From: a bacterium BMS3Abin15
Lineage (GTDB): Bacteria; Patescibacteriota; Minisyncoccia; Moranbacterales; 2-12-FULL-40-10
Direction: 5' to 3'
Assembly: GCA_002923195.1 (NCBI GenBank)
Contig: BDTH01000074.1
Coordinates: 9,081 to 73,080 of the forward strand
DNA length: 64,000 bases
In this document: in pieces, positions 6,145 through 28,755 of the stretch
Position numbering within the stretch: the stretch's first letter is position 1
Layout: every line of letters begins with the position of its first letter
Program-made: the position numbers and the translations under genes
The notes under the pieces: generated by a model
Database searches by the model: none
What the model was told of the DNA's origin: nothing
What the model saw: only the letters and a program-made list of their open reading frames with translations

Positions 6145-6561
6145 TGCTCAATGAGGTTTATGAAAAGATATTTAATTGCTTATTGAATAAGTCATTCCCC
6201 CTTGACCCCGTATATACAAAATACGGTTGGTTTTCACTATATAAAAAATGTATGACTTTTATGAGAATATTCAGTCTTGACCCCGTTAAACCTTCGTCCT
6301 GAGTTTGTCTGCGCCCCATGTAAATCAAAGATTTAACGGGGTTGACAAGTATTGTTCATTGTATACCTAAGTGGAAAATAATGCAAGAAATAGCTTACTT
6401 TTCCGGATTTAAGCACCTAAAGATCTTAACATTATATTGTTTTCTTGTCAAATATGGCTTAAATAAAGGATTTTTAAAAAATGTCGGTTTTTTATCCAAT
6501 TACAGAATTAACTCTATAATTAATTTAACCAACAAGTTATCCACAATTTAGTAACTCTTTC

Positions 6562-6822
6562 TTATTTATTCGCATAATTCCACGCGTTAGCCACTGACTT
6601 GGCGATTCGGGTAGTTGTATAGCCGGCTGGGATGTCAGTTTTTACTGTTAATTTTATATTTTCTTTGTTTATTTTATTTTTCCTAATAAGTTTGTCTATT
6701 TCCGGCAGAAGTTTTTCGCTTAAATTATTTTCATCATTCCACAAAGAAGAGCCGATAACTTTCTTGTTATCTTTCAATTGCAAAGTAATTTTTTCTTTCT
6801 TCAAATGGATGTATAAATACAT
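6562..6822 (-). CDS. Short (86 aa) protein resembling only the N-terminal domain of TsaB/YeaZ (t6A biosynthesis); possible truncated gene
   Basis: MYLYIHLK...LTVKTDIPAGYTTTRIAKSVANAWNYA parallels the TsaB N-terminus (DTST... / GPGSFTGLRIG..A.GLA). No continuation of homology is visible downstream. Confidence 0.4.
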   Translation of the reverse strand: MYLYIHLKKEKITLQLKDNKKVIGSSLWNDENNLSEKLLPEIDKLIRKNKINKENIKLTVKTDIPAGYTTTRIAKSVANAWNYANK

Positions 6823-8119: not shown

Positions 8120-9283
8120 TTAGCGAAGTGCCTCATTGATAACATCTTCGTCTTGACAGGAATACTTTCTATCCGCAGAATAAAACCTTTCATATTTACC
8201 GTGGCATCCCCCATTGTATTTTGGTAGTGGCGTCGTTATCGGCATTAAAAATCCCATATCGCGAGAAGTAAAAAATTTATGCAGACTGCGTAATGTTTTA
8301 GTCCTGGTATCTTTGTTCATATTAACAAAAATACTCATATCATCCCCGGACTTGGCACTCCAATCAAGATGAAGTAGGACATTATTGGCTTTGGAAGAAA
8401 ATCTTTCGTGCCAGATAAGCGCCCAACACCAATCACCTTCCTGCTGCCACCAGTGAGAATGGCAAGGACCGTCCTCTATATTTCCGCTGCCATCTATGCC
8501 CACGCCGCCTTCAATGTAATCAAAAAGTTTTAAGTATTCCGGGTTATCAATATCATTCGTTTGGGCGCCAATTACAATTTCTGTATTTTTAAAGTCAGCG
8601 TACTCTCTCATTTCCCGGATTATTTCCGGAATTATAGGATTAGAAAGATCGCTTCTTTCCTGATAAAAAATTTGACCGAATAAAAAACTCTGGATGCCCA
8701 TGTCTATGGCCTGTTCGGTGATGTATCTTAAGTATTTCCTGTATTCTTCTTTTTTGAAAGACGGAATGCAGGTATGCTCCCCCCAGAAATTCTTGCTGTG
8801 CCCGCGGCACATCTCGTCAAATTCAAATTCCCGTTTTTCAGCCGGATAATAATAATTATCTTTCACATCAATAGCTTCGGCAATGAACATTCCATAAACG
8901 ATATCTTTCTTTTTGATTTTCTTTTTGATTTTTTTGGCCTTTTTAAAATCAGGCGGCTCCAGCCAAGTTTCAATGGCCCGATGGAGATAATAGCATTCCG
9001 ATCGATTAATCAGTTTAGCGTTTTCATTTGTTCTTCCCCCATAACTGGTAAGAAATCCGTCAGCCACGCATCCTTTGGTTTTCATCTTTTCCATTGATGG
9101 AGGCGGGGGTGGGGGCAATGGATCAGGGAGCACCTTTTTATATAATCTTATCACTATGGGAACATATTTTGTTTCGTCATCAACTGAAAAGCTTGAAGTA
9201 AAGTCAATCAAAATAGCAGTTGTAAATATTGCAACTGACAACACAATTATTATTCCTTTCCACGTTTTGATAGGATGTGCCAT
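8120..9283 (-). CDS. Hypothetical membrane-anchored protein with poly-proline linker and a Cys/Trp-rich extracytoplasmic domain
   Basis: 387-aa ORF with N-terminal TM and PPPPPP linker; no recognisable catalytic motif. Confidence 0.6.
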   Translation of the reverse strand: MAHPIKTWKGIIIVLSVAIFTTAILIDFTSSFSVDDETKYVPIVIRLYKKVLPDPLPPPPPPSMEKMKTKGCVADGFLTSYGGRTNENAKLINRSECYYLHRAIETWLEPPDFKKAKKIKKKIKKKDIVYGMFIAEAIDVKDNYYYPAEKREFEFDEMCRGHSKNFWGEHTCIPSFKKEEYRKYLRYITEQAIDMGIQSFLFGQIFYQERSDLSNPIIPEIIREMREYADFKNTEIVIGAQTNDIDNPEYLKLFDYIEGGVGIDGSGNIEDGPCHSHWWQQEGDWCWALIWHERFSSKANNVLLHLDWSAKSGDDMSIFVNMNKDTRTKTLRSLHKFFTSRDMGFLMPITTPLPKYNGGCHGKYERFYSADRKYSCQDEDVINEALR

Positions 9284-10805: not shown

Positions 10806-10871
10806 GTCCCCACACCAATACTAGTGAAGTTTACTGCTATTTTTAGTTTGTCGTAAATATTGGCGTGGGGA
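10806..10871. repeat. Palindromic element, copy 1 of the CCCCACACCAAT...ATTGG(C/T)GTGGGG family (intergenic, upstream of thiI)
   Basis: Terminal inverted repeats gtccccacaccaata / tattggcgtgggga about 40 bp apart. Confidence 0.7.
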
Positions 10872-10875
10872 TGAA

Positions 10876-12315
10876 TTGACATTACCTCACTCCATAATAC
10901 ATAATACTTTATACATGATACATCATACACACATCATCTGCCACTATAACGAAATAGGCATCAAGGGAGGAAATCGGGATTATTTCGAGAAAATGCTGGT
11001 TGATAATATCAAAAATAAGTTGGATAGAGATATCTCTAATGGATTTGAACATGCACGCCCCCGCACTAATTCTAAAATAATAAAAAGCTCAAAAATTAAT
11101 TCACGCAACAGTCTTGATTATAAACATAGTAAGGTCACTGCTAATATTGGTGTGGGGGTAAAACGCATTTCCGGCCGAATAATCATAAGACTCACGAATA
11201 AAGAGCAGATGAAAAGCAAATTTGAACTAATATTAAAAAACATCTTCGGTATTGCTAATTTTTCTTTCGCCATTGAATCAAAACAGGACATAAAAATACT
11301 TCAGGAAGATTGCTGGAATCTTATTAAAAATGAAAAGTTCAAGACTTTTAGAGTTACAACTCAGCGGTCAGAAAAAAACTATCCTCTTACTTCCCAGCAG
11401 GTTAATGAAAAAGTAGGAGATTACATTTGTAAAAAATTAGAAAAGGATGTTCGCCCTGTTAAATTCGCCAGAAGCGGTGCAAAACAATTTAACAGGGTAA
11501 ATCTCAAAAATCCAGATATTAATTGCTTCATTGAAATAGTGGATAAGCAAGCGTTTATTTATTTAGAAAAAATAGACGGTCCGGGAGGAATGCCAGTGGG
11601 AACCAGTGGGAAAGCCTTAGTGCTTCTTTCTGGAGGAATTGATTCGCCGGTCGCCGCTTACTATATGCTTAAGAGAGGAGTTAGAACTGATTTTATTCAT
11701 TTTCACTCTACTTCTCCGGCTTCGGTAGGTAAGGTCAAGGAGCTGGCAAAAATCATAAACAAGTTTCAGCTGAATTCAAAAATATTTATAATTCCATTTA
11801 CTGAAATCCAGAAAGAAATCATGGCGCAGACTCCTCCTAAGTTAAGGGTTATATTCTACCGAAGAGTGATGCTGAAAATTGCCGAAGCTATTGCTAATAA
11901 AGAAAAGTATTTAGTTCTTGTTACCGGAGAGGCGGTGGGACAGGTGGCCTCGCAGACATTGGAAAATATAGCGGTAATAGAAGATGCTGTTCACCCCCAC
12001 ACCAATTTAGTTAATAAAAGCTTACTTAATAAAAAAACTACTACCGATAAAAATAATAGAATTGGTGTGGGGGTATATATACCCGTTCTTCGCCCACTAA
12101 TTGGGTTTGATAAAGAAGAAATTATAAATAAAGCCAAAGAGATCGGGACTTATGAAACTTCCATCCTTCCCCATGAAGATTGCTGTACCCGCTTTATTCC
12201 CAAACATCCGGAAACCAGAGCCAAATTAACCGAAGTAAAAGAAGCGGAAAAGAATTTGAATGTTGAGAAACTGGTCAAAGAAGCAATAAAGAATTATAAT
12301 TCAGAAAAGCTTTGA
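10876..12315 (+). CDS. thiI: tRNA 4-thiouridine synthase / tRNA sulfurtransferase ThiI (THUMP + PP-loop), carrying two in-frame palindromic-element insertions
   Basis: ICHYNEIGIKGGNRDYFE (N-terminal ThiI region), PP-loop ALVLLSGGIDSPVAAYYM, C-terminal IPVLRPLIGFDKEEII...GTYETSI. Confidence 0.85.
   Translation: MTLPHSIIHNTLYMIHHTHIICHYNEIGIKGGNRDYFEKMLVDNIKNKLDRDISNGFEHARPRTNSKIIKSSKINSRNSLDYKHSKVTANIGVGVKRISGRIIIRLTNKEQMKSKFELILKNIFGIANFSFAIESKQDIKILQEDCWNLIKNEKFKTFRVTTQRSEKNYPLTSQQVNEKVGDYICKKLEKDVRPVKFARSGAKQFNRVNLKNPDINCFIEIVDKQAFIYLEKIDGPGGMPVGTSGKALVLLSGGIDSPVAAYYMLKRGVRTDFIHFHSTSPASVGKVKELAKIINKFQLNSKIFIIPFTEIQKEIMAQTPPKLRVIFYRRVMLKIAEAIANKEKYLVLVTGEAVGQVASQTLENIAVIEDAVHPHTNLVNKSLLNKKTTTDKNNRIGVGVYIPVLRPLIGFDKEEIINKAKEIGTYETSILPHEDCCTRFIPKHPETRAKLTEVKEAEKNLNVEKLVKEAIKNYNSEKL
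11054..11160. repeat. Palindromic element copy 2, inserted in-frame inside thiI (encodes ARPRTNSKIIKSSKINSRNSLDYKHSKVTANIGVGV)
   Basis: Imperfect termini cacgcccccgcactaat ... aatattggtgtgggggta; reading frame stays open. Confidence 0.65.
11992..12075. repeat. Palindromic element copy 3, inserted in-frame inside thiI (84 bp = 28 codons, HPHTNLVNKSLLNKKTTTDKNNRIGVGV)
   Basis: 15-bp inverted repeat cacccccacaccaat / attggtgtgggggta. The element starts exactly on a codon boundary of thiI. Confidence 0.8.
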
Positions 12316-28558: not shown

Positions 28559-28669
28559 CACCCCCACACCTATGCAAGTAATAATCGTAATTTTTTAACA
28601 AATAAGCCTTGTTGTCTAGATTAAATTGTAAGATTATACACAGTGTTTTTATATATAGGTGTGGGGGTA
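28559..28669. repeat. Palindromic element copy 4 (cacccccacacctat ... ataggtgtgggggta) in the divergent intergenic region
   Basis: 15-bp inverted repeat with 14/15 match, 81 bp apart. Confidence 0.7.
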
Positions 28670-28755
28670 AAATTGACATATTTTTCACAGTTAGTAGTAT
28701 TACTAATGTACCTACCCCCCAGGTATGTATTATTTAATAAGAAATCCACGCAATT

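Follow-up and report, generated by a model that had tools for sequence, protein, structure and literature searches.

Palindromic mini-elements inserted in frame in a Patescibacteria thiI gene, and small GIY-YIG nuclease units that share their ends

Colonisation of genes in frame by palindromic repeats has so far been described mainly in Rickettsia, where the Rickettsia palindromic elements (RPEs) occupy coding sequence in frame and free of stop codons (Ogata et al. 2000, 2002, as reviewed in PMC10969869). Bacterial MITEs that can also lie in genes (ERIC, Correia, BOX and others) are non-coding, end in terminal inverted repeats (TIRs), make target duplications, reach high copy numbers and now and then form in-frame fusions with host ORFs (PMC10969869). 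For such MITEs the link, known or presumed, is to a DDE transposase from a known IS family. REPs, by comparison, are imperfect palindromes with a GTAG-type tetranucleotide, make no target duplication and have an HUH Y1 enzyme (RAYT). To our knowledge, no autonomous partner has been established for the RPEs.

Here we analysed a 64,000-nucleotide stretch of DNA (the window) from the Patescibacteria MAG 'bacterium BMS3Abin15', an uncultured, ultra-small bacterium. The original prediction was that four copies of an RPE-like palindromic element occur in it, two of them inside thiI, and the likeness to RPEs is upheld, since the in-frame, stop-free occupation of coding sequence matches RPE behaviour (PMC10969869). 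As with RPEs, short palindromic repeats of several families per genome are found in a reduced genome, both between genes and in frame in unrelated housekeeping genes, where they add peptides at places that the fold tolerates. However, the phylum is another one and the sequences are probably unrelated; the elements of what we call family 1 measure 50-110 bp as against about 100-150 bp for RPEs, their interior is not conserved, and the encoded peptide is conserved at its ends only (HPHT...GVGV). In addition, family 1 shows a clear 4-bp target-site duplication, spans several phyla and has a candidate autonomous partner. The relation to RPEs is treated here as a functional analogy and not as membership of the RPE families.

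Three in-frame insertions in thiI

The host gene, thiI, encodes tRNA 4-thiouridine synthase and is an intact plus-strand ORF of 466 aa (10915..12315). Its product shares 100% identity with 'putative tRNA sulfurtransferase [bacterium BMS3Abin15]', matches Pfam ThiI (1.5e-68) as well as ThiI_fer and THUMP, and finds 2c5s in the PDB (1e-63). The translation contains the PP-loop motif SGGIDS together with the EDCC cysteines, and the domain set is complete, comprising a ferredoxin-like N-domain, THUMP and the PP-loop ATP pyrophosphatase (Pfam; PDB 2c5s and 4kr6; structural model).

All four predicted family-1 copies are real, with ends CCCCCACACC...GGTGTGGGGG, two being clean and two decayed (elements are given here without strand). 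The copies placed at 11992-12075 and 28559-28669 are as described, with perfect arms of 15 and 14 bp, and correspond to the intact elements e3 (11994-12073, in thiI) and e4 (28561-28667, 107 bp, intergenic). Those placed at 10806-10871 and 11054-11160 are likewise genuine, but their termini are decayed and their boundaries had to be refined, to 10807-10871 for e1 (65 bp) and to 11058-11158 for e2 (in thiI). With up to two mismatches, the terminus CACCCCCACACCWAT occurs six times in the window against 0.13 expected, a count that none of 100 shuffles reaches, and paired ends no more than 130 bp apart (again up to two mismatches) give five matches against 0.11 expected. One of these five matches, at 9036-9115, is not an element but falls in a minus-strand ORF, on a stretch coding for poly-proline.

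The decayed copy e1 (ends TCCCCACACC..GGCGTGGGGA, flanks CCTG/TGAA) lies between thiI and a divergently oriented, putative superoxide-dismutase-like gene, in the intergenic region, with the thiI ATG 44 bp downstream; e4 (flanks TACA/TAAA) also occupies a divergent intergenic region. Within thiI, the left end of e2 is decayed (CCCCCGCACT) and its right end perfect, with CACG at 11054-57 and TAAA at 11159-62 as flanks. The 107-bp span first proposed for this copy is not divisible by three; the refined element of 101 bp plus 4 makes 105 bp, or 35 codons (ARPRT...NIGVG), in the N-terminal ferredoxin-like domain. Flanked by TTCA (11990-93) and TATA (12074-77), e3 contributes 80 + 4 = 84 bp, or 28 codons (HPHT...IGVGV), to the PP-loop domain immediately ahead of the PVLRPL motif. 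As had been stated, a codon boundary marks the start of the 84-bp copy, and both family-1 copies in thiI end in IGVGV.

A third in-frame palindromic insertion of thiI, absent from the original prediction, belongs to a second dispersed family. This family-2 mini-element (11454..11497, 44 bp, ends CCCTGTTAAATT..AATTTAACAGGG, flanks TTCG/TAAA) amounts with 4 bp more to 48 bp, or 16 codons, in a loop of the THUMP domain. Family-2 ends are found at the same thiI codon in L002/L003, at the unrelated loci L021, L137, L211 and L232, and on both sides of GIY-YIG ORFs in L159 and L253.

As predicted, both family-1 segments are lineage-specific: in an alignment of 22 ThiI proteins, the 35- and 28-codon segments occur in the BMS3Abin15 protein only, neither being present in any of the 21 homologues on which this empty-site comparison rests, the nearest of them 59% identical. 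At the DNA level, e2 is exactly 35 codons more than the thiI DNA of L002 and L004, and e3 exactly 28 codons more than L002 at GAT GCT GTT AAA TTG CCG, while alignments to the solved structures 2c5s and 4kr6 are interrupted exactly at both segments. In an AlphaFold model of ThiI, most 10-residue blocks outside the inserts have a pLDDT of 85-93, and no long segments other than the inserts fall below 50 (residues 48-79 for e2, 180-190 for the family-2 insert and 362-385 for e3); they form low-confidence loops between secondary-structure elements, in agreement with the surface placement that had been suggested. The copies are probably translated, and ThiI is probably still active.

Family 1 across genomes

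Family-1 elements have a length of 50-111 bp, inverted ends of 10-17 bp with TIRs CCCCCACACC(W)A... / ...T(W)GGTGTGGGGG, and a variable A+T-rich interior. More than 230 copies were found elsewhere, their hosts being numerous Patescibacteria, Omnitrophota and Planctomycetota as well as other groups, in at least 118 stretches of the genome collection (where a rough estimate gives about 10-16 chance matches), at least 120 of metagenomes and 10 viral ones. The terminus is thus not confined to the sites first noticed, but is spread over the window and hundreds of further genomes. Matches of a T-variant pattern in Prevotella and Bacteroides were set aside as tandem GTGAGGGT-type low-complexity repeats.

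Among the matches listed, the 4-mers flanking the element are identical in 44 of 104 copies of a first sample (shuffle mean 10.9, maximum 21) and in 50 of 131 copies of an independent one (mean 6.9, maximum 16), collected with a search pattern without forced flank bases. In the latter, 2-mers, 3-mers and inverted flanks are not in excess. For 5-mers the count is 5 against 0.4, and the large excess is at k = 4 only. The target-site duplication of family 1 is therefore 4 bp, mostly TNNA (TTTA, TAAA, TATA, TTAA), and the conservation of T at -3 and of A at +3, at one point considered an extended inverted repeat, comes instead from the search pattern and this direct duplication. In the window, the flank pairs are imperfect (TTCA/TATA, TACA/TAAA, CACG/TAAA); a recurrent asymmetric pair, TTCA..TAAA, is not accounted for by a simple duplication model. 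Because about 40% of copies have a perfect 4-bp target-site duplication, they appear to be true transposable elements (MITEs), and the other features by which MITEs are known are found as well: short non-coding elements with TIRs, a duplication of fixed length, dispersed copies, and ends in common with a longer, protein-coding unit. That the repeats are MITEs and that the thiI copies are read through in frame is, in our judgement, very highly probable.

About one copy in eight lies in an ORF, and such copies nearly always keep the frame. Long open frames contain 34 of the 212 copies listed, for example two in a Nealsonbacteria uvrA gene and one in a Phycisphaerae ORF. In 26 of these 34, length plus four is a multiple of three, where one third would be expected, whereas copies outside ORFs split 72/60/46. 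Such a strong bias towards coding copies that keep the frame and have no stops is not needed if the inserts were removed before the mature protein is made, by an unconventional intron, a translational bypass or an intein-like step that would leave ThiI at its usual length. Inverted ends would indeed bring the two junctions together, and elements of the superfamily also occur in tRNA anticodon loops (L227, L061); however, the intergenic e4 meets a stop codon when read in the frame that the thiI copies use, the segments are much too short for an intein, and in-silico deletion never convincingly rejoined a split gene, yielding long ORFs only at tight operon spacers, e.g. upstream of putative pilT-like and rpsC-like starts. 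We regard removal as extremely improbable.

The ends of the window elements of both families pair as stems of 14-17 bp with z-scores of -3.9 to -5.4 (e1, -23.7 kcal/mol, z -3.9; e3, -27.9 kcal/mol, z -5.4; e4, -33.1 kcal/mol, z -4.4; the family-2 element in thiI, z -5.4), which upholds the prediction on the proposed check of RNA structure too. Stems of this strength would also suit RNA or DNA signals selected by the host, such as REP-like stabilisers, processing stems, terminators or operators, the thiI copies then being regulatory and not selfish. Consistent with this, the ends of one orthologous coding copy are identical at 30 of 30 positions, against 74% identity for the flanking gene, internal hairpins of some copies show compensatory changes across classes (L007, L070, L080), and copies stand directly upstream of start codons or promoters. 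The constraint on the ends of the coding copy counts for the MITE reading as well. Against it, the elements have target-site duplications, carry the same 10-bp core in unrelated phyla, vary in interior and position, and share their ends with a nuclease ORF; both intergenic copies of the window lie in divergent promoter regions and not at gene 3' ends. Nor does any Rfam family match: searching the window and loci against Rfam 15 at gathering and permissive thresholds, the family-1 and family-2 hairpins match no family at gathering score and give only sub-threshold miRNA-precursor-like matches, while tRNAs and the L10 leader are alone above threshold. Host-selected signals are hence a very unlikely origin of the repeats, but single copies may have been exapted secondarily.

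Like REPs and REPINs with their RAYT enzymes, the hairpins are dispersed between genes, sometimes in tandem clusters (e.g. L070), and presumably accompany one small nuclease-type gene per genome. They differ in having a duplication, in an arm (CCCCCACACC) that lacks G and cannot pair with itself, and in a GIY-YIG partner ORF.

GIY-YIG units with the same ends

A tblastn search with inspection of context showed that 10 of 12 sampled genes for GIY-YIG nucleases of 84-87 aa are bracketed by family-1 or family-2 ends, forming units of 289-305 bp with nothing else between the ends. The ORF belongs to PF01541 (E 1e-15 and 6e-16), and all 14 GIY-YIG sequences show the motifs YVY..YIG..R..H..YYE..N. 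Two of the units, one for each end family, lie on another BMS3Abin15 contig. One of them (L253, 2987-3281) encodes P0176, an 84-aa protein annotated as 'GIY-YIG nuclease superfamily protein [bacterium BMS3Abin15]', and is bounded by TCCCC..GGGGA, an end variant also seen in e1; its ends, TCCCCACACCAATT..AATTGGTGTGGGGA, match those of e1, and its flanks, TTCA..TATA, match those of e3. A perfect TAAT duplication surrounds the ORF-carrying copy at L257. The subfamily of the GIY-YIG protein tracks the end family, i.e. the two co-diverge.

Since 10 of 12 genes have the same ends and two units exist in BMS3Abin15 itself, the thiI inserts look like ORF-less derivatives of these units, and taken by itself the proposal that the GIY-YIG unit is the partner of the MITEs is somewhat better than an even bet. 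Prokaryotic stand-alone Slx1-like proteins are minimal GIY-YIG domains without auxiliary domains (PMC1564403). Free-standing and intron-encoded GIY-YIG homing endonucleases (I-TevI, Seg) resemble the units in their PF01541 catalytic domain, selfish behaviour and horizontal spread, but have DNA-binding domains and no TIRs, target duplications or ORF-less derivatives. We know of no GIY-YIG enzyme that acts as a transposase and of no agreed function for stand-alone bacterial GIY-YIG proteins. Counting against the proposal, an 84-aa GIY-YIG domain has no DNA-binding module, alignment between MITE interiors and the ORF-carrying element stops about 15 bp from each end, and no autonomous GIY-YIG copy was seen at several sites of one genome.

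One alternative derives the MITEs from a conventional DDE transposon of the IS1380/piggyBac kind, with small GIY-YIG and tRNA genes as passengers. The CCC...GGG ends and the 4-bp duplication at T/A-rich tetranucleotides do resemble those of piggyBac and its prokaryotic relative IS1380, although piggyBac targets TTAA and the family-1 target is a looser TNNA (PMC10813416). Other cargo is known too, in the form of tRNA-Thr genes between family-1 ends in L061 and L211, and the GIY-YIG ORF could equally be cargo moved by another enzyme. But the ORF-carrying form is about 300 bp long here as against 1.6-2.5 kb, and inspection by eye, covering end pairs separated by as much as 5 kb in about 1.8 Mb of flanking DNA as well as the window ORFs of at least 130 aa, revealed no DDD/DDE transposase-like ORF. 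End pairs 300-5000 bp apart with matching flanks, tried as a long autonomous element, enclose no transposase and are separate MITE copies. Whereas the ERIC, Correia and BOX types are linked, or presumed to be linked, to DDE transposases, the sole ORF found between ends of this kind is a stand-alone GIY-YIG nuclease, in 10 of 12 genes with nothing else inside, and the co-divergence of protein subfamily and end family also counts against passengers. A DDE origin therefore seems unlikely.

We favour the reading that the thiI repeats are in-frame MITEs, translated as loops and sourced from GIY-YIG elements of about 300 bp acting in trans, and give it a probability of roughly 70%. A non-autonomous family-1 element would insert with a 4-bp target-site duplication, mostly TNNA, and a copy in a gene would persist only where its length together with the duplication is divisible by three and no stop interrupts the frame. 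In thiI, two copies of family 1 and one of family 2 would have passed this filter and would be read as hydrophilic, probably disordered surface loops of 35, 16 and 28 residues between folded ThiI elements. The source of the family would be the element of about 300 bp with the same inverted ends around one gene for an 84-87-aa stand-alone GIY-YIG nuclease, and the two such elements on the other BMS3Abin15 contig may serve the ORF-less copies in trans. The GIY-YIG protein would be the enzyme that moves them, presumably by cut-and-paste chemistry.

Beyond the original prediction, the repeats thus emerge as elements with TIRs and target-site duplications, as a family that crosses phyla, and as having a likely autonomous partner in the GIY-YIG nuclease gene. 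Keyword searches of the literature found no description of a prokaryotic element combining a stand-alone GIY-YIG protein with TIRs and target-site duplication and no MITE study of the candidate phyla radiation, and an exact-sequence search returned unrelated papers only. The hallmarks of transposition are clean, yet the one gene that goes with the elements encodes a minimal GIY-YIG nuclease. Tentatively, and with somewhat less than even confidence, the 300-bp units could be autonomous transposable elements and the smallest autonomous ISs known, the GIY-YIG proteins an unrecognised class of prokaryotic transposase, and the ORF-less derivatives a general source of lineage-specific loops in Patescibacteria (thiI, uvrA). 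If the GIY-YIG protein moves the elements, it would introduce a new enzyme class in prokaryotic transposition, with an autonomous element that does not reach half the length of IS200, and provide for study a DNA-cutting module of very small size, specific for structure or sequence.

The same in-frame behaviour in Patescibacteria (thiI, uvrA) and in a Planctomycetota ORF may account for some of the numerous insertions in the proteins of these groups that so far lack an explanation. Moreover, the 10-bp end core is near-identical in phyla that are distant and unrelated but found in the same kinds of habitat, and could possibly serve to trace gene flow that links ultra-small bacteria with their neighbours.

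Palindromic insertions in thiI

The thiI gene (10915-12315, forward strand) is an intact ORF of 466 aa with ThiI, THUMP and ThiI_fer domains. Its product matches solved ThiI structures (2c5s, 1e-63; 4kr6, 2e-57) and shows 100% identity to "putative tRNA sulfurtransferase [bacterium BMS3Abin15]". The next-closest sequences reach no more than 59% identity and, where named, belong to Patescibacteria; the window therefore derives from a candidate-phyla-radiation MAG. The original prediction of four elements with inverted CACCCCCACACCWAT termini proved real, with six matches to the terminus in the window at ≤2 mismatches against 0.13 expected. All four copies are present, but only two have clean termini, in thiI (11992-12075) and between genes (28559-28669), with perfect arms of 15 and 14 bp, respectively; those at 10806-10871 and 11054-11160 are decayed.

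Both predicted inserts, ARPRT...NIGVG (35 aa) and HPHT...IGVGV (28 aa), are lineage-specific, occurring in BMS3Abin15 ThiI alone among the 22 ThiI proteins aligned, and HMMER alignments to 2c5s and 4kr6 are interrupted at both. Codon-by-codon comparison with uninserted homologue DNA gives exactly +35 and +28 codons, so the reading frame is kept as claimed. The insert lengths of 84 bp (80 + 4) and 105 bp (101 + 4) arise because the target-site duplication is 4 bp. Outside the inserts, most 10-residue blocks of an AlphaFold model built from the 22-protein alignment have pLDDT 85-93, and just three long segments of the model, at residues 48-79, 180-190 and 362-385, fall below 50. The first and last are the 35-aa and 28-aa inserts, which are thus predicted to lie in loops of an otherwise confident ThiI fold, as had been proposed. 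With the frame kept, such surface locations would have allowed the insertions to persist.

The segment at 180-190 pointed to a third insertion, absent from the original prediction: a mini-element in the THUMP loop (11454-11497) with a second set of CCC...GGG ends (CCCTGTTAAATT...AATTTAACAGGG; family 2, the preceding copies being family 1), in frame at 44 + 4 = 48 bp. Family-2 ends occupy the identical codon in thiI of another metagenomic bacterium (L002/L003), and also turn up at unrelated sites, as a tandem pair in L021 and in L137, L211 and L232. The L001 thiI has a family-1 variant, CCCTCACACCAAA...TTTGGTGTGAGGG, at this codon, so that the families found at one thiI codon differ between lineages. 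Further in-frame insertions in these homologues of thiI are likewise palindromes with CCC...GGG ends.

Of the five window elements, four lie within 1.3 kb (10807-12073), in or just upstream of thiI, and in L001, L002 and L004, from three further uncultured bacteria, thiI likewise carries several in-frame CCC...GGG palindromes. This clustering could reflect a hot spot, local hopping or unusual tolerance. Separately, the BMS3Abin15 ThiI is missing, at residues 264-266 (11705-11715), three residues (M/L-P-Y/F) found between FHS and TSPASV in 21 homologues. Both intergenic copies (10807-10871 and 28561-28667) sit in promoter regions between divergent genes, and no more than a few bases beyond each is an identical AATTGACAT (10872-10885 and 28668-28682) that includes a TTGACA -35-like hexamer; the intergenic elements may supply or displace promoter sequence.

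A dispersed family with a 4-bp target-site duplication

The terminus is dispersed in many genomes beyond the window. A scan with the paired-end pattern, using one genome per species, returned at least 118 matching stretches, with chance matches estimated at ~10-16. Among the matches listed, hosts include Saccharibacteria, Moran-, Nomura-, Doudna-, Nealson-, Yonath- and Liptonbacteria and Paceibacterota within the Patescibacteria, and Omnitrophota, Planctomycetota/Phycisphaerae, Bdellovibrionales and Nitrospinota elsewhere. Without forced flank bases, the pattern matched at least 120 metagenome stretches, and 10 were found on viral contigs. An Rfam search yielded no family matching the elements. 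At several loci, two to four copies occur within 8 kb, in some cases as tandem arrays (L070 1529-1690, L007 and L080). The T-variant matches in Prevotella/Bacteroides (L019, L026, L029, L042, L051, L060, L090, L099, L110, L111, L115, L120) were set aside as a different low-complexity repeat of (G)GTGAGGGT / ACCCTCAC(C) units around short spacers.

With the element taken as CCCCCACACC...GGTGTGGGGG, the four bases on each side were identical direct repeats in 44/104 copies of a first sample (mean 10.9 and maximum 21 in 2000 shuffles) and in 50/131 copies of an independent unbiased sample (mean 6.9, maximum 16). In the latter, 2-mers, 3-mers and inverted flanks showed no excess over shuffles. The duplicated tetranucleotides vary (TTTA, TAAA, TATA, TTGA, TCAA, CAAG and others), with TNNA preferred. 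Family 1 is therefore a true MITE with a 4-bp target-site duplication. The copies in the window have imperfect flank pairs (TTCA/TATA, TACA/TAAA, CACG/TAAA, CCTG/TGAA), and an asymmetric pair, TTCA..TAAA, recurs in both MITEs and ORF-carrying units.

Insertions in genes are filtered by frame. Among 212 non-redundant copies with enough flank, 34 were coding (frame open for ≥150 nt on both sides), and in 26 of these length + 4 was divisible by three, against 72/60/46 across the three length classes for the copies outside such frames. For several exceptions the ORF call is ambiguous, since the contig is G+C-rich and has open frames on both strands. The commonest reading is that of thiI, xPHT...GVGV, presumably the one frame in which the A+T-rich TNNA flank rarely makes a stop codon. 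A UvrA-like ORF of 1033 aa, identified by sequence reading in a Nealsonbacteria MAG (L080 4017-7118), carries two in-frame family-1 copies in different frames (GPHTKRG...CGVGAG and SPPHHNED...LVWCGGK); another copy lies ~600 bp away. Coding copies keep their ends: where two Moranbacteria share an orthologous in-ORF copy (L035 6808-6889 and L037 6222-6303), the 15-bp ends are 30/30 identical, against 42/52 (81%) for the interior and 74% for the flanking gene. Since in-silico deletion of elements gave no convincing re-joining of split genes, the copies appear to be read through, with no sign of splicing or bypass.

The suggested likeness to Rickettsia palindromic elements is borne out by frame-preserving copies in thiI, the uvrA-like gene and a Phycisphaerae ORF. 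In-frame palindromic repeats are known in Rickettsia (RPE) and sporadically in ERIC and other MITEs (PMC10969869), and the thiI case is therefore a new instance of a known phenomenon. No account of MITEs in the candidate phyla radiation was found in the literature accessible to search.

In a 75-nt subfamily from Saccharibacteria and a Nealsonbacterium (L070, L007, L080), two nested internal stems show compensatory changes, which suggests structural constraint beyond the ends. Copies at L114 6578-6682 and L100 2910-2976 lie in operons, 4-12 nt upstream of the start codons of genes that, judged from translations, are rpsC-like and pilT-like; their terminal GGGGGT could serve as a Shine-Dalgarno-like sequence.

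GIY-YIG units between the same ends

A complete 85-aa ORF lies between family-2 ends at L159, and a tblastn search of all the retrieved DNA with this ORF as query gave six further ORFs of the kind, one of them (L172) between family-1-type ends, CCCTCACACCAATTG...CAATTGGTGTGAGGG. The two ORFs that were tested match the GIY-YIG domain (PF01541, E about 1e-15). Their homologues number 1405 proteins in a database search, most of them 84-85 aa long, and come from Planctomycetes, Omnitrophica, Cloacimonetes, Margulisbacteria, Gottesmanbacteria and others; the wider family forms 7325 clusters at 50% identity (E up to 1e-3). One homologue, P0176, is "GIY-YIG nuclease superfamily protein [bacterium BMS3Abin15]", from the same organism as the window. 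Its locus (L253-L255) reads TTCA|TCCCCACACCAATT-ATG...TAA...AATTGGTGTGGGGA|TATA, with the end variant of the decayed intergenic copy at 10807-10871 and the flank pair of the thiI copy at 11994-12073, and a second GIY-YIG gene lies between family-2 ends one kilobase downstream. Family-1 or family-2 ends bracket 10 of 12 sampled GIY-YIG genes, in units of 289-305 bp, one with a perfect TAAT duplication (L257); in the two exceptions (L258, L259) the ends are partial or rearranged. Identity is 67-84% among family-1 proteins and 69% between two family-2 proteins, but 38-50% across families. Ends and ORF co-occur and co-diverge, in the source genome as elsewhere, and the protein subfamily tracks the end family. 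Such units are the probable parents of the ORF-less copies.

The GIY-YIG protein would recognise the ends, which, by analogy with eukaryotic Slx1, may be extruded as a hairpin or cruciform, and would mobilise its own unit together with ORF-less copies. The chief alternative is that a conventional DDE transposon carries the GIY-YIG gene as cargo: family 1 resembles piggyBac/IS1380 in its CCC...GGG ends and 4-bp duplication, and tRNA-Thr genes are likewise found between family-1 ends, but inspection by eye of the window and ~1.8 Mb of flanking DNA revealed no DDE transposase. We put the probability that the GIY-YIG elements represent a new enzyme class for transposition at about 0.4. Stand-alone prokaryotic GIY-YIG proteins are given only as a minimal, Slx1-like form (PMC1564403), and the accessible literature yielded no prokaryotic TIR/TSD element with a GIY-YIG nuclease as its sole gene. 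Among the genes that Patescibacteria are predicted to have passed to other groundwater bacteria is a GIY-YIG gene (PMC12455944), consistent with cross-phylum spread of the elements.

Further GIY-YIG ORFs occur at L223 and L251, and between other inverted ends starting CCC at L073 (CCCAGCACTAATTTT) and L252 (CCCGTTAGAGAAA), the latter two pointing to a superfamily with many end families. At L227 (~6270-6680), the anticodon loop of a tRNA-Glu 5' half contains a GIY-YIG gene whose ends are of the CCCTGTGGG type, and an intact second tRNA-Glu follows. Complete tRNA-Thr(CGT) genes lie between family-1 ends at L061 2304-2478 and L211 2166-2273, adjoined by truncated tRNA 5' halves ending at TAAA in the anticodon loop, an arrangement suggesting that an element with a replacement tRNA on board has inserted repeatedly into a tRNA gene.
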